The notes under the pieces are model-generated. The model made no database searches. It was not told the origin of the DNA and saw only the letters and a program-made list of their open reading frames with translations. A stretch of 42,640 nt of DNA. Source: Candidatus Binatia bacterium. GTDB lineage: Bacteria > Desulfobacterota > Binatia > UBA9968. The stretch lies in contig JBOHVJ010000474.1 of the NCBI GenBank assembly GCA_050735075.1, forward strand, positions 1-42,640, in the 5' to 3' direction. The translations under genes were made by a program, and so were the position numbers. Below, in pieces: positions 3,164 through 42,640 of the stretch (its first letter is position 1; every line of letters begins with the position of its first letter).

Positions 3164-5368
3164 TCATCCATTTTTAGTTCCTTTCAATTTGATGCCACCA
3201 AACCCCCGTGTTCCTCGTATCTTCATTTTAGGAATAGTCGATTCTAACTTCTCATACAATCGGCCCGCCGATAGTCGACCATAGCCGTTGGTTTCCGCCC
3301 ACATTTTGTAGACCATATACAATTCTGTGCGTTTGGTAAACGCATTTTGTTCTCGTACTGTGCAATCCATTATAAAGCTGGACAGGGGGTCAGCAATCAT
3401 TTTGTAATGCCTGGTGGCTTTCTTTACACTCTGTGGGATCTCAAACTTTTGACGTTCCATGAGCCGGCGCAGTCCTCTAACCGCGTACCGCAATAGTCCC
3501 TCTAGCTCGGCTTGTGTTGTCAACTCGTTTATAACATCCTTCTTTCTATTGCCCTTTTCGTCTGAGAATTTCGCAGAGAAAGGCAGTACCAGCCACCGGC
3601 GGAAGAAACCCTCTGTTGTGTCCTCTGATTGTGGAAGTTTATTGAATGATGCAATCATTGTAGCGCGAACCCTGAAATTGTGTTGTCCCTGAACATATTT
3701 CCGTTCTGCTGTGAGTGTGTCCCCGCCCGTCATCTTCTTGAATTTCTCAGTGGACTTGAACATTTTTGGGTCAACATCTCCCGCCAGGTTAGCGAGCTTT
3801 CCATAGAGGGTTAATTCCTGAAACCTACCTTCCACCTTTTGGGGACTCACACTAACGTGATTGTCCTGTCCCACTAGGGCCTCTAGGATGGACAAGAATG
3901 TGCCCTTCCCGTTTCCTCCTTTTCCATGGAGCATAAAGGCTAGCTGGAACGGGTTACCGTAGAACAACGTATACCCGATGATTTCCATAGCGAATTTAAA
4001 TGAGTCCTCCGGAAAAACCTGACGCATCCATTTCTTGATGGCGGGACAATCTGCTTGTGGATTCCACTTCACTGGGATACGGATGACGGAGTTAATCTCC
4101 GGACTGTGAGGCTGGAGCTTTCCTATCCTCCAGTCCAATAGACCATTTGGCAGGTTAAGGTATTGCGTATCCACTGAGGAATCAGTAAACCGGGGGTCTT
4201 TCAGTCTCACCAAATCCTCTACAGTGGTCCGGTATTCCTTCCGGTACCTCTCCCCGAGTAGCTGCGCAGCTCGCCGGCCTATCTCTTTGTCCCCTTCAGG
4301 TCTCCACACCCCATTTTTGTAACACATGATGTCACCGACATGTGACATTTCCAGGCTTCCAAGAGACTCTACCGCCCTTTTCAGTTTCTGGATCTGGATA
4401 CCACCCTTACCGAAGAAGTCTTCAAGATCATCAGCCTCGGCACCCAGGCAGGGATCATCTTCAGCCACGGGTGTAGCGGCTGCTTTCTCGACTCCACCGA
4501 CGCACGCCCGGACCCACTCCCGGCGTGCCTCATCCTCTGTGCGTCGTCCGCTTGCCTCGGAGCAATTCTGCCAGGTTTTCCGTAGCTTTCGTAGGGCAGC
4601 CCTACCCCCAGTGTGTCCCGCGCCTGTCTCGCGAAGTAGAGCCCATGCCGCATCAGTCATCGCATCATGCATGCCCCCGGGGTCTACCGCTTTTTTGAGT
4701 AGCTGTTGGTGCCGTTTAAGAACCTTCGCCATCTCAAGGCAGACATCTCCCGCCCCATGCTTACGGAGCCATTTACGGGCGTCAACCGATGCGCGAGGAC
4801 GGACCTTATATCCATTAGGGTTAGCGAAAGACTCAATCCATTTCTTGGGTAGCTGAGCTAGTTCATTGAGAGATGGAAACTCGCCAAAATCGGCCGTTGT
4901 CCCGTCAGCATGTAGCCACTCGTATAAACCGCCTGAGGGGTGCACCGATGGAGGCAACACGACGTAACGATAATGCCGATAGATGACGTCGACACCATCA
5001 ATGAGCTTTCCGGGCCAGGCATAGCCCTTCGGAACTCGAAACCAGAGATGGAACCTCTTAGGATTACCGCGATGTACGCGCCACGTCCTAGGCAGCTTGC
5101 CGTACCGCTTCTGGAGTTGTTGGAAGTTACGCCAGGCTCCGGGCTTGTCTCCATCGACATCAATAACCACCATGCCTTCAGGAACCACTGTGCCCACATT
5201 GGAGGGTCCCTCCTCAGCCCATTCTTTTATCTTTCGTTTTGTGATTTGAATGCTATTAGGAGTGCCATCAGGCGGAGGGTGTTTTTCTACATACGGCAAT
5301 GGCACGGGCAGATACCCGTGCTCATAGTAACCTGGAGCCGCGTTCGCGAACGGGTCGAATCGGCCCAT
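3164..5368 (-). CDS. bifunctional primase-polymerase / SF3 (D5-P4 type) helicase
   Basis: 734 aa. N-terminal prim-pol signatures are VVIDVDGD and YVVLPPSVHPSGGLYEW. The C-terminal part has the P-loop HGKGGNGKGTF, typical of phage P4 alpha / D5-like primase-helicases. Confidence 0.88.
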   Translation of the reverse strand: MGRFDPFANAAPGYYEHGYLPVPLPYVEKHPPPDGTPNSIQITKRKIKEWAEEGPSNVGTVVPEGMVVIDVDGDKPGAWRNFQQLQKRYGKLPRTWRVHRGNPKRFHLWFRVPKGYAWPGKLIDGVDVIYRHYRYVVLPPSVHPSGGLYEWLHADGTTADFGEFPSLNELAQLPKKWIESFANPNGYKVRPRASVDARKWLRKHGAGDVCLEMAKVLKRHQQLLKKAVDPGGMHDAMTDAAWALLRETGAGHTGGRAALRKLRKTWQNCSEASGRRTEDEARREWVRACVGGVEKAAATPVAEDDPCLGAEADDLEDFFGKGGIQIQKLKRAVESLGSLEMSHVGDIMCYKNGVWRPEGDKEIGRRAAQLLGERYRKEYRTTVEDLVRLKDPRFTDSSVDTQYLNLPNGLLDWRIGKLQPHSPEINSVIRIPVKWNPQADCPAIKKWMRQVFPEDSFKFAMEIIGYTLFYGNPFQLAFMLHGKGGNGKGTFLSILEALVGQDNHVSVSPQKVEGRFQELTLYGKLANLAGDVDPKMFKSTEKFKKMTGGDTLTAERKYVQGQHNFRVRATMIASFNKLPQSEDTTEGFFRRWLVLPFSAKFSDEKGNRKKDVINELTTQAELEGLLRYAVRGLRRLMERQKFEIPQSVKKATRHYKMIADPLSSFIMDCTVREQNAFTKRTELYMVYKMWAETNGYGRLSAGRLYEKLESTIPKMKIRGTRGFGGIKLKGTKNG

Positions 5369-5429: not shown

Positions 5430-5470
5430 GAAACCCCCTAGGAAGCTTGCTTTGTTCCCTAGGGGGTTTC
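5430..5470. promoter_or_regulatory. perfect 13-bp inverted repeat (hairpin or dimer-binding site)
   Basis: gaaaccccctagg (5430-5442) and cctagggggtttc (5458-5470) flank a 15-nt spacer. The element lies in the gap between gene 5475-5687 and the primase gene. No clean U-run follows on the minus strand. Confidence 0.6.
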
Positions 5471-5474
5471 TGTT

Positions 5475-5687
5475 TCAGTGAGTGCGGATGTTTGCCTTTA
5501 CAGGCTCCTCGATCCACTCCCATGTGTTACGGTGCCAAATGTACCGGCCTTGGTAATAGTGACGACTGTTGTTCCTTTGGTGCTTACGAAGAATAATACC
5601 TTCCCATTCAATTCCGGCAGTAAGCACAACCCCATGTCTGGGGCCGCCTACCGCCCTGCCCTTAAGCATTGTGCAATTCTCGTTCAT
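5475..5687 (-). CDS. hypothetical protein (70 aa)
   Basis: ORF-track ORF, co-oriented in the operon, overlapping the upstream gene end. No motif recognised. Confidence 0.55.
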   Translation of the reverse strand: MNENCTMLKGRAVGGPRHGVVLTAGIEWEGIILRKHQRNNSRHYYQGRYIWHRNTWEWIEEPVKANIRTH

Positions 5688-6003
5688 TTCGGTTAGCTAA
5701 TTCATCGATCGTAGCGGCGATTATCGTATAATCCCTGATTTGCGCAGCCCACACTCGTAACTGTTCGGCGTAGCACGCAGGTTGGCTGAGACTGCTGTCC
5801 TCATCAAAGCGATTGAGCGGCGACGTATGAAGGTCAATACTGAGTGCGGCAACCAAGTTGATCCACCGGTCATGTGTCTCGCCGTGCATCACGGTGTGCA
5901 GCGATTCCGCAAAGTCACGATACGGATGCAGTCGGATTTCATTGGCGAGTGCATGTAGAAGTTGCGATTCGGTGCGGCACTTTAGTGCATTCATGGTGGC
6001 CAT
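5662..6003 (-). CDS. hypothetical protein (113 aa)
   Basis: ORF-track ORF, co-oriented. No motif recognised. Confidence 0.6.
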   Translation of the reverse strand: MATMNALKCRTESQLLHALANEIRLHPYRDFAESLHTVMHGETHDRWINLVAALSIDLHTSPLNRFDEDSSLSQPACYAEQLRVWAAQIRDYTIIAATIDELANRNERELHNA

Positions 6004-6030
6004 TCCAGGGGATTGGAGTAGTAAGAGAAG

Positions 6031-6207
6031 CTACGACTTACGGCAGTAGCGGTTCATCTCTATGCCGGTGATTTCCTTGCCGCTAGGCAATTCGATCACA
6101 CAGTTAGGGTTGTATGAAGTACCTTTGCGAGAGAGAATGTACTCTGCGTCTTCTATAGCTAATTGGTTGTCGCGTGCTGTTTTGAATGGTTCTGGATTGA
6201 AGTTCAT
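6031..6207 (-). CDS. hypothetical protein (58 aa from MNFNPEPF)
   Basis: ORF-track 6031-6222 trimmed to the ATG at 6207, which has GGGAG upstream. That ATG overlaps the stop of the upstream micro-ORF (ATGA). Confidence 0.6.
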   Translation of the reverse strand: MNFNPEPFKTARDNQLAIEDAEYILSRKGTSYNPNCVIELPSGKEITGIEMNRYCRKS

Positions 6208-6290
6208 TTCGGTGGCTCCCAACTATTGATAACCCAAAGCAGTAACGCTATAAATAGTAACGCTACAGCGATTTTGCCTTCGGTGGGCAT
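6204..6290 (-). CDS. 28-aa single-pass membrane peptide
   Basis: Below the ORF-track cutoff. AAAGGAA SD lies 7 nt before the ATG at 6290. Product MPTEGKIAVALLFIALLLWVINSWEPPK. Its TGA overlaps the ATG of the next gene (ATGA). The 9-nt direct repeat agcgttact x2 is explained by the repeated A-L-L codons. Confidence 0.5.
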   Translation of the reverse strand: MPTEGKIAVALLFIALLLWVINSWEPPK

Positions 6291-6818
6291 TAGGAGATTC
6301 CTTTATTGGGGAGGGTTGGAGCCCCGGAGCCTTGCGGAGTTTGCCGAACGACCTACACGAACCAGCATTCGGATTGGAAAAATTCGGCTTGATCACTGCT
6401 AAGGCTCCGGGGTGGCTATTGAGTTATCTATGACTAGCCGGGGAGGGTCACTGGCTTCTATGCGAGCCACGGGGGCAACTCGCTCCACCTATCCTCCCCG
6501 GCCAACCAAGGCAGACAAATCATGCAGTCAGCGGGGCCTAGCCACTAGTCGCATTCACCGGGCGTGCACAGTCCCGGATTTTCTGAGACCCTCAGAGCCG
6601 TAGGACTCGCTCTTTATAGGTCTCATAGTGCGCTAGCCCGACTCGAACGGGCCGGAGTTCCTGGGTTGACAAAACACGTTGTCACTCCCGATCCCTCGCA
6701 GCGCATCACTCCCCCGGTGGGAGCTTTAGGTGACAACGGCTATATCTCTCGCTTACCGCTGTCTTATCGGGTGCTGGCTGGTGGCCCGACGACCAGAAGA
6801 GAAACCCGAATTTGCATG
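6291..6818 (-). ncRNA. candidate large structured RNA locus (family unknown)
   Basis: There is no minus-strand ORF >=60 aa in 528 nt of an otherwise tightly packed operon. Several GC-rich nested helices are present: 6431-6446/6493-6508, 6322-6331/6403-6412, 6585-6590/6619-6624 and 6678-6685/6730-6737. G-U wobbles work only in the minus sense. The locus lies downstream of a promoter-bearing 70-aa gene. Boundaries are unknown. Confidence 0.4.
6628..6705 (-). ncRNA. non-canonical tRNA-like element (acceptor stem plus consensus T-arm)
   Basis: Minus-strand 78 nt. A 7-bp acceptor stem TGCGCTG/TAGCGCA (one G-U) stacks on the T-arm GCCCG-TTCGAGT-CGGGC. Discriminator is C and no CCA is encoded. The D-arm is aberrant, the anticodon hairpin loop is 6 or 8 nt, and the variable region is 14 nt. 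It is not a standard cloverleaf. Confidence 0.4.
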
Positions 6819-7031
6819 TCATGCAGAAGCCAGGCTCACTACAATCTCGTCCTCTGCGCCCTTCCCCAGTGCCTTTACAGTGTTCTTGGGGAGGTAGAGA
6901 GTCTTGATCGCGGCATCCGGGTCTTCCGCCTTGTACTGGTAGGTGCCGGGGGTCTCCTTGGCGTACGCCAATCGGACCTTCACAACCTTGCGGGCCGGCT
7001 TCTTGACGGCGGGGGCTTCCTCGTCGGTCAC
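6819..7031 (-). CDS. hypothetical small protein (70 aa, GTG start)
   Basis: ORF-track 6819-7154 trimmed. AAAGGAGATAGGAAA precedes the GTG at 7031. Product VTDEEAPAVKKPARKVVKVRLAYAKETPGTYQYKAEDPDAAIKTLYLPKNTVKALGKGAEDEIVVSLASA. The longer version would cover its own promoter. Confidence 0.65.
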   Translation of the reverse strand: MTDEEAPAVKKPARKVVKVRLAYAKETPGTYQYKAEDPDAAIKTLYLPKNTVKALGKGAEDEIVVSLASA

Positions 7032-7070
7032 TTTCCTATCTCCTTTTGTCAGTGAAGCTCTGTGGGGACA

Positions 7071-7099
7071 ACGGTAGCGTACTCGTTGATTGCTGTCAA
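7071..7099 (-). promoter_or_regulatory. sigma70-like promoter TTGACA-N17-TACCGT
   Basis: Read on the minus strand: -35 TTGACA (7094-7099), a 17-nt spacer, and -10 TACCGT (7071-7076). The -10 lies about 40 nt upstream of the GTG at 7031. Confidence 0.45.
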
Positions 7100-7255
7100 C
7101 TGTTAGCCACAACACGGTTACTTTGTGTGTATAGTCGGAAATGTCCGATTCCATAGTGGACTTTGCGACACACTTTCACGATGCAATTTAGGGGTGTTCT
7201 AGTATTTTTCGGATTTTCCAGCAAAACGTTTCATTTTGTATATATATGAATTTTT

Positions 7256-7477
7256 CTAGCGCAAATACCCGTAATTGTCTGGGTTGGACAGCTCGTTGAT
7301 GGCACGAATTATCCAGATGAAGATCTCACGCAGCATTTCTAGCGGGTCTTGGTCGATGCCTAGAGCCTCGCGGATGAACCAAGATGCCGCTACGTAGAAA
7401 AGAAACAAGACCAGCAGGAACATAAACACTCGCTTAGCCACTGTGTTCTCCGCAGTACCGGCATTCATGATCAACAT
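7256..7477 (-). CDS. membrane protein (73 aa)
   Basis: ORF-track ORF with the hydrophobic segment RVFMFLLVLFLFYVAASWFI. Confidence 0.6.
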   Translation of the reverse strand: MLIMNAGTAENTVAKRVFMFLLVLFLFYVAASWFIREALGIDQDPLEMLREIFIWIIRAINELSNPDNYGYLR

Positions 7478-7594
7478 GATTACCTGTTCGGTTACACCTA
7501 TGCTGCCGGTAGGTTGAATCTGATTTGGTTTTTCGCTTACTAGGCCATACCCGATTACATGTTACAGCCCATCCACTGAGTGATTGTGTCATTA

Positions 7595-8110
7595 TTACAC
7601 ATCTCCTCTCTTCAGTCTTCGCATGAACACGACTGCATGTTGAACAGCAGCAAAGGCATCTTTTCCTTTTACTGGTCCGAGCTTCCAGCGAGTCAAACGA
7701 TCACGAGTTACCCCAATACGCAGTGATCGAGGCTGGTAGCTTAATGGAATGTTCATTCGCCATAGCGAGAAGTCCAATGCTGCGTTAATTCGCACTGGGC
7801 TGAGTACTTCATCCCCTCCAATCGTTCCGATATGATCGAATCTCTCCGTCACTACATGTATGTTGTGCTTTTCAGATGAAGGCCTCGGCTCCAAGAATAG
7901 CGGGAACTCTTTCTTGATCAGGTCTAGGGCGTCTCTGATTTGCTCGTTTTCTGGTCCTCCGAACTCTCCGTATTGATACGCTTGAATATTTCGGAGGATT
8001 CTCTCAGACTCGTCTGTAAACGCCCTTGGATGGACTTTGAAGAGTGCCCATCCAGTTCTCCCGCCGGGGTCAAAGCTGATGATGGTTGTGGCTCTATGGT
8101 TTGTTCCCAT
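7595..8110 (-). CDS. RuvC-like Holliday junction resolvase
   Basis: 171 aa. The N-terminal IISFDPGGRTGWALF matches the RuvC-fold first catalytic Asp motif. Later acidic residues are VVTERFD and KGKDAFAAVQHAV. Confidence 0.7.
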   Translation of the reverse strand: MGTNHRATTIISFDPGGRTGWALFKVHPRAFTDESERILRNIQAYQYGEFGGPENEQIRDALDLIKKEFPLFLEPRPSSEKHNIHVVTERFDHIGTIGGDEVLSPVRINAALDFSLWRMNIPLSYQPRSLRIGVTRDRLTRWKLGPVKGKDAFAAVQHAVVFMRRLKRGDV

Positions 8111-8419: not shown

Positions 8420-8643
8420 GTGGTTTCGGTCCTTTTCTTATTGATAGCTTCAAGAGCTTGGAACACCACTCGTTCGGCTGCAACTAGTATGGCGGATAAT
8501 TCGTCATCCTGACAGACTGCTCCGCACATTTGTGGCTGACCACAGCATCGCCACCATCGCAGCAACCGCGCTAAGCCGGCAATGTTCTCCGGCGAGCCCG
8601 GCACTTCCTCTATGCGTAGTTTCTCACTCATCCTTGTATCCAT
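8416..8643 (-). CDS. hypothetical Cys-containing protein (75 aa; alternative start at 8631)
   Basis: ORF-track ORF overlapping the end of the polymerase gene. Contains CCGQPQMCGAVC. Start is uncertain between the ATGs at 8643 and 8631. Confidence 0.5.
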   Translation of the reverse strand: MDTRMSEKLRIEEVPGSPENIAGLARLLRWWRCCGQPQMCGAVCQDDELSAILVAAERVVFQALEAINKKRTETT

Positions 8644-10651
8644 CTCCCCAGCTACGCCCGTACACCTTACCGGCGGCGGTAAACGGCACTCCCATGAACT
8701 TCGTCGACATTATTTCAGCGAAGGTGTCTGCAATCTTCTGGGCTTTTTGTTGCGGTCCCTGTCCCAAGATTTCATCGTGGATCACGAGTAGCGCGTGCTT
8801 TCCGTGCTCGCTTTCGGCAATCCGTACCAGACCTTCAGCCGTCATGTCGCGGCTAGCGCTCTGCACACGGTAATTCACTGCCCTGTACGCTTTGATAGCG
8901 TCCACAATTAGGCGACGGCCTATCGGGGTGACCACCACACCTGTTTTGTCCCGCAACAATTCGTTGATCTCGCTGCGTAGTGCTCGTTTCAGTGCCTTGC
9001 CCGCATTGCTGTTGTCACAGTCCCACGTCTGGCGCTGGAAATGCTTCAGCATTGCATAATCAGTATTAGATAAGGCGTCCCGTAGCACTCCTTCGGTAGT
9101 CTCCCGTTTCCATCGGGCCATTACAGGGTATGCCTTGTTGTATCGGCTCACGAGGGAGGCTGCCGTTTCGATATCAATACCCGTCTGTTCAGCGAGAGTC
9201 TTAGCACCCCCGCCGAACAGCCAACCAAAGTTCAGGTTCTTGGAGAATTTATACTCGCGGTCTGAGTAGTTTTTTCCGAAGACAGTTTCCGCAGTCAGTT
9301 TGTGAATAGAGAAGTTGTCGTGTGCCGCTTGAATAATTTTGGGCTCACCGGATAGCGCTCCCGCCATCCGCATTTCCTGCTGATCATAGTCCACCGAGAA
9401 GATGTGCCAATTATAGTCAGCAATGAAGCACTGCCGAATCCGTTTCTCATGAGAGGGAACATTGTGGAGTTGAATGTCTGACATCGACATGCGAGCGGTT
9501 CGGGCAGCAAGAGATTTGATTGTAGGGTGTGCTTTATCGTTGACATCCCGTTCCTCTAGCGCTGCGTCAAGCCACGCCGCTTTACGCTTACGTAGTTGTT
9601 TAGCGGCCAGGACATGTGAGACGAGGGCGCCAAGGTCTCCGTCTGCATACTTAAATTGATGAAGCACAGTGTTGTCAACTTTGAGCTTTCCCGTCTTTGT
9701 GCGTTCAACAAGATGAGCGCCATGAGATAACATAGCTGTTGACAGTTGGGCGGTGGAATTGATGTTCGGCACGCCATACCAATCAGCCCACATTTCATTT
9801 GACTCTGCATCGAACACCATTTCCTCAGCAAGTTTACGAGTATATTCAACATCTACCCGTATGCCTTGTCGCTGTAATACATCACATGCACGCTGTACTC
9901 TGTGCTCGAAATCAGCAAGCCGGCGCTGTCCTTTTCGTTGTCGCAATACGCTGACGAGGTGACGCCATACTCGGATCGTGTTCAGTGGATCGGACCCAGC
10001 GTACCGAAGGTAGGTTTCATTGTGGAGAGGAATAAGGGTCCAGCCCTCAGAGAGCTTAGCTTTACGATACTTCTGCGTACCCTTTCTCGGTCCAGACCGG
10101 TAGACCTCTCCCGGAATTTCTATCTGAATCTGCTTGAATTCAGCTTTCAGGTTCTTCTCGAATCGGAAGACACCACGGTCTACGTGCGCAATGGCGAGAT
10201 CTTCCAGTCGGTTGCCTGTTCCGCCCTCCTTCTTATTTCTTGAGTCAAGAAGATGGCCCAGGATAAACGTGTCTGTGCAGGAGGGGAGCAATCCTGTCTC
10301 ATAGTCAAGGTGTCTATCGATAGCCCGCACATCGTGAGGGGCGTTGTGGCAGACCCATTTACGCTCAACAGAAAGTACCTCTCGAATCAACCGGCGATAC
10401 CTGGCGGGAATAATGTACACGCAGTGGTCATCACCAAACTGGAACATACGAAGACGCCAATTCGGATGGTGCGAGTTGATACCCGTGGACTCCGTGTCAA
10501 AAGACATTCGCCTGGAGCTAGTAGCGAAGTCAAGTACTTCTGCAAAGTCTCTAGGAGTTTGGACAGCATTAATCGCACAAGTATCTCCCGCGATTTGTTC
10601 GTTAAGCCGGATCATACTGCCGCTTTTCGTGCTCGTATGATTCTCGTCCAC
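8624..10651 (-). CDS. family A DNA polymerase with 3'-5' exonuclease domain
   Basis: 675 aa. ExoI motif MSFDTESTG, pol motif A DYDQQEMRM, motif B KFSKNLNFGWLFGGGAKT, motif C LVIHDEIL. No 5'-3' exonuclease domain is present. Confidence 0.92.
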   Translation of the reverse strand: MDENHTSTKSGSMIRLNEQIAGDTCAINAVQTPRDFAEVLDFATSSRRMSFDTESTGINSHHPNWRLRMFQFGDDHCVYIIPARYRRLIREVLSVERKWVCHNAPHDVRAIDRHLDYETGLLPSCTDTFILGHLLDSRNKKEGGTGNRLEDLAIAHVDRGVFRFEKNLKAEFKQIQIEIPGEVYRSGPRKGTQKYRKAKLSEGWTLIPLHNETYLRYAGSDPLNTIRVWRHLVSVLRQRKGQRRLADFEHRVQRACDVLQRQGIRVDVEYTRKLAEEMVFDAESNEMWADWYGVPNINSTAQLSTAMLSHGAHLVERTKTGKLKVDNTVLHQFKYADGDLGALVSHVLAAKQLRKRKAAWLDAALEERDVNDKAHPTIKSLAARTARMSMSDIQLHNVPSHEKRIRQCFIADYNWHIFSVDYDQQEMRMAGALSGEPKIIQAAHDNFSIHKLTAETVFGKNYSDREYKFSKNLNFGWLFGGGAKTLAEQTGIDIETAASLVSRYNKAYPVMARWKRETTEGVLRDALSNTDYAMLKHFQRQTWDCDNSNAGKALKRALRSEINELLRDKTGVVVTPIGRRLIVDAIKAYRAVNYRVQSASRDMTAEGLVRIAESEHGKHALLVIHDEILGQGPQQKAQKIADTFAEIMSTKFMGVPFTAAGKVYGRSWGDGYKDE

Positions 10652-15919: not shown

Positions 15920-15949
15920 ACCTTACACAGGCCGAGTCACGAGTGTCAA
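15920..15949 (-). promoter_or_regulatory. sigma70-like promoter TTGACA-N18-TAAGGT
   Basis: Minus strand: -35 TTGACA (15944-15949), an 18-nt spacer, and -10 TAAGGT (15920-15925). The -10 lies about 50 nt upstream of the start at 15868. Confidence 0.45.
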
Positions 15950-41521: not shown

Positions 41522-41590
41522 TGTGCCAGGATAACAGATGGTCAGTAATGCCCCTGTTTGGGGCAATTGCGTCCCATCACATTCTCTATC

Positions 41591-41633
41591 CCACTATCCA
41601 CATTAGACACTGCCACTATCCACATTAGACACT
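41591..41633. repeat. 21-bp perfect direct repeat x2 (22-bp period), each containing CTATCCACA
   Basis: ccactatccacattagacact occurs at 41591-41611 and again at 41613-41633. The pair lies about 70-110 nt upstream of the terS ATG. Confidence 0.85.
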
Positions 41634-41840
41634 CCACAATTTCAAATCTTCAACAAAACCTTTTCACTGCCGCCGCGGGCCTCCCCAGACCCGAGCAATT
41701 AAAAACATCCGTGAAACTACATTCACGATCACGGACAGTAGTGAGCCGTCAATGCAATAACAAAGGTAAAATGGTGCTCGTGAAAGTGTATTTCTTAAGA
41801 AATCAACAGTGAATGTCCGAAATGCGAAACCTACGGTACC

Positions 41841-42042
41841 GTAGGGGGCAGCTAGGGGGCAGGATCTGTGCCCCCCGTTTCCGCAGGTCAGCGATTTGTT
41901 TGGTGATCAAGGGGGCACCCTAATGCCCCCCAAAATCAATAATACTTCGCATAAAAATCTAGGACAAAACTGGACATAATTCCAGGGCAAAGTATTTAAA
42001 ACGGGCATATCGGGCAATGTTACTAGTCAGTAGGGGGCAGCT
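41841..42042. repeat. cluster of GGGGGCA / TGCCCCC heptamers (two palindromic units plus direct copies)
   Basis: GGGGGCA at 41844, 41855, 41911 and 42033; TGCCCCC at 41869 and 41924. Palindromes are GGGGGCA-N7-TGCCCCC (41855-41875) and GGGGGCA-N6-TGCCCCC (41911-41930). The 13-mer GTAGGGGGCAGCT is repeated at 41841 and 42030. Confidence 0.75.
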
Positions 42043-42049
42043 TCGTTTC

Positions 42050-42640
42050 AACCTCCCTCAGTAACGTAGAGCGCACTGTGCACGATACTACAATACACTA
42101 TTGCATTCCCTATGATTGTCACTCTATGTCATTGTTTCTATTCGCTAGTTTATACATCAACTACCATTATGAATGTTGTATTGTAATCCCAATGTACCAT
42201 TCACCTTTCCCAATTGATAGTTGACGCTTAAACCATCCTAGGAAGGTGATTCGGACACAATAGGACATAATACCCCAATATTATAACGATTGGGTAACTA
42301 TGTGTCCGTTTTATGGTGATTTGGCTTGGTGATGTTGCCGCCGGTGCCTCGCTGTGGTACGCTGATTCACGCCACAGCAATGCCGCACAATTGATTTAGC
42401 GCTTCCGCCATAGGCTCCGTCTTATTGCACATGCCGCGAGCCTTTTTAAAACTCAATAGCAATAGTCGGCTAAGCGCTTAAATAGCAATACGCAATAACG
42501 CCGAATGGCGTGAATGTATTACGCAGGAAACAAAAGAATGTGAATGTTATATTGTAATCTCCTTTGCGTACACGGGTGGGAATTAAACTAATTATTAAAA
42601 TAATATTAAATCAAAGATTTATATATATATTTTATATAAT
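42050..42640. other. ORF-free, AT-richer terminal region ending in a near-pure A/T tract
   Basis: No ORF >=60 aa in any frame from 41813 to the end of the window. Short hairpins at 42351-42378 and 42498-42511. A 20-mer is repeated with 2 mismatches (42171-42190 and 42542-42561). The last ~60 nt are almost entirely A/T. Confidence 0.5.

Follow-up and report, generated by a model that had tools for sequence, protein, structure and literature searches.

The contig JBOHVJ010000474.1, which we analysed over its full length of 42,640 nucleotides (nt) and refer to as the window, looks like a complete tailed-phage genome of ~42.6 kilobases (kb), with all of its genes on the minus strand. Our subject is a locus of about 0.5 kb at positions 6291-6818, between the DNA polymerase and primase genes. 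The locus is real non-coding DNA which, on sequence comparison, is specific to this phage lineage, and it carries hairpins and a transfer RNA (tRNA)-like pattern above chance on the strand of the genes. The reading that we tentatively prefer is a lineage-specific, transcribed non-coding spacer, in which independent local RNA elements are arranged around a tRNA-derived module. The locus fits no known RNA family, yet it is built of familiar kinds of parts, which are listed here with lengths in base pairs (bp) where they are stems and with folding z-scores (z) where needed:

6291-6818, minus strand: non-coding, highly structured spacer, from open reading frame (ORF), coding-potential, folding and entropy analyses
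6322-6412, minus strand: long hairpin D3, whose base is a perfect 12-bp stem enclosing stems of 7 bp and 5 bp
6424-6518, minus strand: long hairpin D2, with a core at 6431-6508, a 16-bp base and a 9-bp apical stem
6521-6576, minus strand: 3' strand of a predicted long-range closing helix, pairing with 6768-6818
6583-6626, minus strand: 44-nt hairpin of 8 + 5 bp (z -3.6, pair probability 0.97-0.99)
6628-6705, minus strand: tRNA-like element of 78 nt, from the acceptor stem and T arm pattern and from ARAGORN at a lowered threshold
6708-6724, minus strand: 6-bp hairpin GCUCCC/GGGAGU directly 5' of the tRNA-like element (pair probability 0.97)
6732-6763, minus strand: 9-bp hairpin GACAGCGGU/GCCGUUGUC (pair probability 0.99)
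6768-6818, minus strand: 5' strand of the predicted long-range closing helix, pairing with 6521-6576

The absence of genes had been proposed in the initial annotation, made from the letters of the window alone, and our results agree with it: the minus strand offers no plausible gene and coding potential is negative in six frames. The longest minus-strand ORF that touches the locus is a GTG ORF of 57 amino acids (aa) at 6223-6396, which overlaps a 28-aa micro-ORF at the downstream edge of the spacer and is implausible as a gene. Inside the genome, 6397-6818 is the longest stretch in which the minus strand has no ORF of 50 aa or more; only the genome end offers a longer one. In a Logan contig that is identical here, an independent gene call likewise left the interval empty. 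Over 6240-6780, a 3-periodic Markov model that had learned from the genes of this phage gives negative scores for every one of the six frames, and it scores the flanking genes of 70 aa and 73 aa positive in their correct frame. The small ORFs and the two plus-strand ORFs of the locus have no match in Pfam or PHROGs. A decayed protein gene was considered and rejected, as nothing was returned by comparison of six-frame ORFs with Pfam and PHROGs or by tblastx against relatives.

The tRNA-like minihelix, already mentioned in the initial annotation, is the one strand-specific feature of the locus, with T arm and acceptor stem on the minus strand. Its acceptor stem, UGCGCUG/UAGCGCA, has 7 bp (six Watson-Crick and one G-U), with C as discriminator and no encoded CCA. 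The T arm GCCCG-UUCGAGU-CGGGC, a 5-bp stem with a 7-nt loop of the UUCRANN type, is contiguous with the 3' acceptor strand and is the only such T arm of the genome on either strand; a GG is present in the D-loop region. Scanning both strands with a combined acceptor and T-arm pattern gives this one site, against a mean of 0.0025 per dinucleotide-shuffled genome. When the ARAGORN threshold is lowered to 95% of its default, the element is called as tRNA-Thr(UGU), the sole candidate in the genome. With default settings ARAGORN finds no tRNA or transfer-messenger RNA (tmRNA) in the window, and the tRNA model of Rfam stays silent on the element at expectation values (E) up to 10, also when the search is confined to 116 nt.

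The element at 6628-6705 is not a canonical tRNA. Two of the four standard pairs of the D stem and three of the five of the anticodon stem are present, the variable region measures 9-10 nt, and U33 is found together with a C, not a purine, at position 37. The body can be drawn either as a degenerate D and anticodon region (UGU) or as a single long arm UGACAA/UUGUCA, and its minimum-energy fold favours the long arm. In the fold of the whole locus the pair probabilities are 0.81 for the acceptor stem, 0.90 for the T arm and ~0.42 for the body pairs; the element alone has a minus-sense z of -1.5. The acceptor stem and T arm keep all of their 12 pairs, whereas the D and anticodon stems have lost 4 of 9, a contrast that suggests selection on the minihelix or else recent capture. 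None of 185,579 species genomes (GTDB) contains the 24-mer made of the T arm and the acceptor strand, and the element therefore does not copy a known host tRNA. A tRNA origin is nevertheless plausible, since a distant relative of the phage (L005, polymerase 42% identical) has a normal tRNA-Leu(TAG) gene at its positions 403-476. We also considered a phage attachment site (attP) overlapping a tRNA gene and rejected it, given the missing 24-mer and the lack of an integrase domain among the phage proteins scanned. A TGACAA-N6-TTGTCA operator and the motif CCGTTGTC are no more frequent than expected by chance.

The unusual self-complementarity of the locus was borne out as well. As minus-sense RNA it folds at -213.9 kcal/mol with z = -3.25, and none of 100 shuffles folds as well; the plus-sense RNA has z = -2.35. 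Among 42 non-overlapping 528-nt windows of the genome the minus-sense locus has the lowest z (the others have a mean of -0.54 and a standard deviation of 1.07), and its positional entropy is the second lowest of 161 windows. This excess stability is mainly local and comes from three hairpins, with minus-sense z of -5.85 for D3 (computed on 6320-6414), -4.07 for D2 (on 6429-6510) and -3.6 for 6583-6626. About half of the locus is not significantly structured. The segment 6511-6627, which holds the 44-nt hairpin and the stretch between it and D2, has a minus-sense z of -1.05, and the 5' part at 6706-6818 has -1.7.

The sequences and coordinates quoted in the initial annotation are all present in the window, and its helices could be traced one by one. 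The helix given as 6322-6331/6403-6412 is longer than described and forms the base of D3, a perfect 12-bp pair at 6322-6333/6401-6412. D2 contains a perfect 10-bp pair at 6437-6446/6493-6502 within the 16-bp helix 6431-6446/6493-6508, whose three G-U pairs exist in the minus sense only, and its core is extended by 7 bp (6512-6518/6424-6430). Within D2 a GGAGG resembling a Shine-Dalgarno (SD) sequence pairs with an anti-SD-like CCUCC. The helices 6585-6590/6619-6624 and 6678-6685/6730-6737 are found as described. On inspection D2 and D3 were ruled out as degenerate tRNAs, since a T loop and a cloverleaf are missing from both.

The genome has two perfect inverted repeats of 12 bp or more where 0.11 would be expected, one in D3 and the other in a hairpin at 5430-5470. 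The latter is a perfect 13-bp GC-rich hairpin (GAAACCCCCTAGG / CCTAGGGGGTTTC) with a 15-nt loop and no U tail, located between the ORF 5475-5687 and the primase start, and is the longest perfect short-range inverted repeat of the genome. It may belong with D2 and D3 as an element for processing or termination, and its similarity to them makes U-tail-less hairpins a recurring intergenic feature of this phage. No terminator-like site was found in 5500-7800, and no hairpin of the locus is followed by a U run; this includes the 6583-6626 hairpin, which lies directly 3' of the tRNA-like element and has no U tract. Elsewhere in the genome, a canonical bidirectional terminator-like hairpin at 1211-1230, CCCCCCTC-TCCG-GAGGGGGG, has T runs on both strands and is among the few convincing intrinsic terminators.

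The initial annotation had gone further and proposed a single large structured RNA. This was not supported by our analysis, since the excess stability is that of the three local hairpins and the sole long-range helix reaches p ~0.01 with segments chosen post hoc from the fold itself. This predicted helix, 6768-6818/6521-6576, is irregular, has 36 bp in total with pair probabilities of 0.66-0.88 in the whole-locus fold, and would close a multi-branch domain I around the tRNA-like element. As a duplex it has -44.2 kcal/mol, against -31.0 +/- 5.2 in GC-matched genome windows, of which it beats 99%; 1.4% of shuffles are equal or better. The closing helix is thus weakly supported by the folding model, and domain I (6521-6818) as a whole has z = -2.1. 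Two smaller ideas were dropped. A third CCTCCCC copy, proposed as an alternative pairing arm, is complementary at 10 of 12 positions, which is not above chance. The GGGGGCA heptamer, which had been likened to those at the genome end, is also not above chance and has five further copies scattered outside the genome-end cluster. That cluster consists of six TGCCCCC/GGGGGCA copies within 41844-42039, in a terminal ~1 kb (41567-42640) without an ORF of at least 90 aa; several very stable local folds occur there at 42051-42201 and the last 60 nt are extremely AT-rich. The genome end is probably a packaging or terminal region.

The investigation of related sequences shows how isolated this phage is. 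Its only other copy is a near-identical Logan contig, which has a single 3-nt difference far from the locus. For the primase, the top matches among GenBank phages have 25-28% identity, and no close relative of the phage was found in IMG/VR. The genes flanking the locus are singleton clusters among ~15 billion proteins; exact look-ups of the flanking proteins return the same phage only, and using the concatenated flanking proteins as query gave no match. Relatives were found through homologues of the polymerase and primase (L002-L008) and through homologues of a 171-aa protein (L159-L168), with identities of 42-81% for the polymerase and 45-54% for the primase. In all of these the corresponding intervals are compact, and their slot holds no similar DNA, comparable gap or tRNA. 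The closest relative, L002 from run SRR26290691, has a polymerase 81% identical as protein and ~76% as DNA, and its sequence stops ~0.4 kb short of the locus. The interval 5688-7594, which runs from the conserved 171-aa gene (phrog_1981) to the small gene preceding the primase, has a different content in each of the relatives L002-L008, and judged by gene content the interval from the 171-aa gene to the primase is a hypervariable accessory slot. Among these relatives we also observed, in L006 and L007 2339-5361 (~41-kb relatives from JGI metagenomes), a family A polymerase split into parts of 397 aa and 279 aa. In L006 four small ORFs lie between the two genes, one with a YAcAr domain, and the protein search contains many more split family A polymerases.

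Searches with the DNA of the locus itself gave the same picture, and the phage and metagenome collections, for which the initial annotation had proposed BLASTN, yielded no homologue. Against GenBank phages blastn found no DNA like the locus and a lone chance match of 24 nt (E = 3) for the tRNA-like element, and against plasmids it found no DNA like the locus. In IMG/VR an exact 25-mer was not found and two gapped stem patterns gave unrelated chance matches only, while the D3 stem pattern retrieved only unrelated palindromes from GTDB genomes. An exact 23-mer from the locus is absent from the JGI metagenomes. The 18-mer of the T arm has at least 120 matches there, mostly GC-rich coding DNA together with five ordinary tRNAs, and none of these matches extends past 29 nt. 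The idea of a conserved element of the phage group is therefore not upheld, as the relatives are without the locus, and on these comparisons it is specific to this phage lineage.

The surroundings of the locus belong to a replication module comprising a SNF2 helicase, a PD-(D/E)XK nuclease, an AAA_24 protein, a UDG-like protein, the polymerase and the primase-helicase. The genes and other features that matter for its interpretation are:

3164-5368, minus strand: Prim-Pol/D5 primase-helicase of the replication module
6204-6290, minus strand: 28-aa hydrophobic micro-ORF at the downstream edge of the spacer
6399-6488, minus strand: 29-aa GTG ORF, with a GGAGG SD sequence buried in D2
6819-7031, minus strand: 70-aa gene with a GTG start and the SD sequence AAGGAG 8 nt upstream
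7099-7071, minus strand: promoter-like site TTGACA-N17-TACCGT upstream of the 70-aa gene
8624-10651, minus strand: family A DNA polymerase of the replication module

The GC content is ~0.59 across 6400-7000 versus 0.44-0.50 in the flanking windows 5800-6399 and 7000-7999. This GC-rich island takes in the locus and the upstream 70-aa gene, and an AT-rich stretch (7100-7260) and the promoter-like site lie just upstream of it. The TTGACA-N17-TACCGT promoter claimed for the 70-aa gene was found at 7099-7071 on the minus strand and is plausible. The pattern TTGACA-N16-18-TANNNT has two matches genome-wide with 0.73 expected, both of them intergenic and on the gene strand; the -10 of the 7099-7071 site fits TANNNT only and was missed by a stricter sigma-70 scan. 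The other match, at 15920-15949 on the minus strand, lies in the gap after the SNF2 helicase gene.

The 70-aa gene is a real gene with positive coding potential. Its product falls into a small family of conserved phage proteins that share the motif KETPGTY..DPDAAI.TLY, a family without a Pfam or PDB match. The structure model is a small beta-rich fold with a predicted local distance difference test (pLDDT) score of 78.5, for which the best fold matches are uncharacterised phage proteins, Pas48 of Actinoplanes phage phiAsp2 and gp43 of PhiJL001; likeness to domains of the EF-P or S1 type is weak and not significant. A partnership of the spacer with this protein family was rejected, because in the other phage contigs examined the homologous genes have ORFs immediately after them. 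A 38-aa ORF (6706-6822) overlaps the stop of the 70-aa gene by ATGA. At the other edge of the spacer the 28-aa micro-ORF would encode one hydrophobic helix, and it shares an ATGA between its own stop and the start of a 58-aa gene at 6031-6207. A direct repeat lies inside this micro-ORF at 6241-6265, with two copies of AGTAACGCTA 15 nt apart.

From composition and synteny we infer that the spacer was acquired together with or next to the 70-aa gene, as a GC-rich, promoter-equipped unit in the hypervariable slot. In the modular spacer that we favour, the promoter at 7099-7071 would drive a transcript through the 70-aa gene and the spacer. The core would be the tRNA-derived module with its perfect acceptor stem and T arm, the parts of a tRNA that RNase P, RNase Z and the CCA-adding enzyme recognise. 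Cutting of the transcript at the tRNA-like element by tRNA-processing enzymes (RNase P and RNase Z) would separate the upstream messenger RNA (mRNA) from the downstream RNA and free a tRNA-like RNA of ~78 nt. The U-less GC-rich hairpins (6583-6626, D2 and D3) might serve as stability, processing or attenuation elements before the 28-aa and 58-aa genes.

Several observations weigh against this proposal. The low entropy (rank 2 of 161) and the predicted closing helix fit one integrated RNA better than loose modules. The perfect acceptor and T arm could be those of a recently captured tRNA pseudogene without function. D2 and D3 are also nearly as stable on the plus strand (z -3.81 and -5.63), and such near-equal folding is compatible with a DNA-level or plus-strand role.

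Known RNAs and systems provide partial parallels for the parts of the locus. That it matches no known RNA family agrees with the Rfam scans that had been proposed: there is no match at gathering score in the whole window, and three permissive scans of the locus (E up to 10) gave only unrelated hits at chance level (a microRNA, RAGATH-32 and a CRISPR repeat). A tmRNA was considered and rejected, as neither ARAGORN by default nor Rfam has a match and the acceptor strands are just 64 nt apart; at 60-80% of its threshold ARAGORN produces only junk permuted tmRNA calls. Like phage tRNA genes and pseudogenes, the tRNA-like element has 78 nt, a 7-bp acceptor stem, a 5-bp T stem with the UUCGAGU loop and the D-loop GG, and it lies on the gene strand in a gene-free interval. 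Unlike phage tRNA genes, it falls below the ARAGORN default, is not reported by the Rfam tRNA model and has broken D and anticodon stems.

RNase P and RNase Z read the acceptor and T-arm part of a tRNA, and the element resembles tRNA punctuation signals in placing such a minihelix between coding regions of a polycistronic unit. It differs from them in having no counterpart in the relatives; we know of no tRNA-like processing element from this phage group. Intergenic stem-loops act in mRNA processing, stability or termination, and from this general knowledge the long imperfect GC-rich intergenic hairpins on the gene strand can be likened to RNase III sites of T7-like phages or to U-less hairpin terminators. 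Unlike canonical intrinsic terminators, the hairpins of the locus have no U tract. A type I toxin-antitoxin locus combines a small hydrophobic toxin ORF, a structured leader and an overlapping antisense RNA; here a 28-aa single-helix ORF and a structured region upstream of it are present, the ORF is coupled to the next gene by an ATGA overlap, and the promoter scan predicts none in antisense orientation. The phage RNAs GOLLD and ROOL frequently occur close to tRNA islands, and GOLLD sometimes has tRNAs inside it (PMC12286853). The locus is like them a large non-coding structured phage locus, here with a tRNA-like element. Unlike them, it lacks a covariance-model match, a family, demonstrable pseudoknots and a conserved core, and its structure consists mostly of plain hairpins.

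We ranked the modular spacer above a neutral remnant, followed by one large RNA, a leader or micro-protein locus and a DNA-level site. Next to the spacer, and rather unlikely in our estimation, stands the view that the locus is a functionless mixture of a decayed tRNA gene and leftover cassette DNA, with hairpins that are incidental palindromes in GC-rich foreign DNA. An orphan locus that occurs in no relative or database searched and sits in a hypervariable slot would be expected under this view, which also accounts for the broken D and anticodon stems, the silence of the Rfam tRNA model on the element and the half or so of the locus that is not significantly structured. However, 0.5 kb of junk is seldom kept in phage genomes this compact, and uniform decay would not leave 12 of 12 acceptor and T-arm pairs while breaking 4 of 9 in the D and anticodon stems. 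Incidental palindromes are also hard to reconcile with two perfect stems, one of 12 bp and one of 10 bp, inside 200 nt, when stems of at least 12 bp are expected 0.11 times per genome. It is improbable, in our view, that the locus is one new structured RNA of ~500 nt with three domains, namely domain I at 6521-6818 with the tRNA-like module, D2 as domain II and D3 as domain III. Such an RNA would explain the lowest z of all 528-nt genome windows, the low ensemble entropy and the predicted 36-bp long-range helix (pair probabilities 0.66-0.88, duplex p ~0.01), and phage RNAs linked to tRNAs have a precedent in GOLLD and ROOL (PMC12286853). It would be unrelated to these in sequence and similar in concept, an equally improbable proposition, with a possible role as decoy or scaffold for tRNA-binding host factors or tRNA-targeting defence nucleases. 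But the locus has no Rfam match, GOLLD and ROOL included, and without a homologue in the collections searched there is no covariation support; domain I alone stays at z = -2.1, and most of the stability comes from plain, strand-symmetric hairpins.

More doubtful still is a long structured leader that governs translation of the 28-aa hydrophobic micro-ORF, itself similar to a type I toxin, or a micro-protein locus expressing the 38-aa and 29-aa ORFs. The order of the elements fits, with the single hydrophobic helix coming after the hairpins, ATGA overlaps at both edges of the locus and the GGAGG/CCUCC pairing in D2. Coding potential is negative in every frame, however, and the small ORFs match no protein family, while translational coupling ties the 28-aa ORF to the gene that follows, as is usual within an operon, and it has no predicted antisense promoter. 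A role of the DNA itself, as replication origin, single-strand initiation site or recombination site between the polymerase and primase genes, seems very unlikely to us. The position inside the replication module, the equal stability of the hairpins on both strands and the AT-rich stretch and promoter just upstream (7100-7260) would suit such a site. The locus itself is GC-rich, not AT-rich, it has no iterons or repeated binding sites, the GC skew does not switch there and no integrase is present among the proteins scanned; the locus is also missing from relatives that share the polymerase and primase.

The locus is real and unusual for its genome, and because it is an orphan it is a candidate and not a demonstrated new RNA class. 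It adds a well-documented candidate in a phage lineage without sequenced close relatives. Should all of the 0.5 kb fold into a single RNA, it would form a new class, with one member so far, alongside the few large structured RNAs of phages. A tRNA-like module that is bound and not cut could be a decoy for tRNA-targeting host factors. And if, as in the modular spacer that we tentatively prefer, the module is cut by tRNA-processing enzymes, the locus would be a clear case of tRNA-shaped punctuation in a phage mRNA operon.

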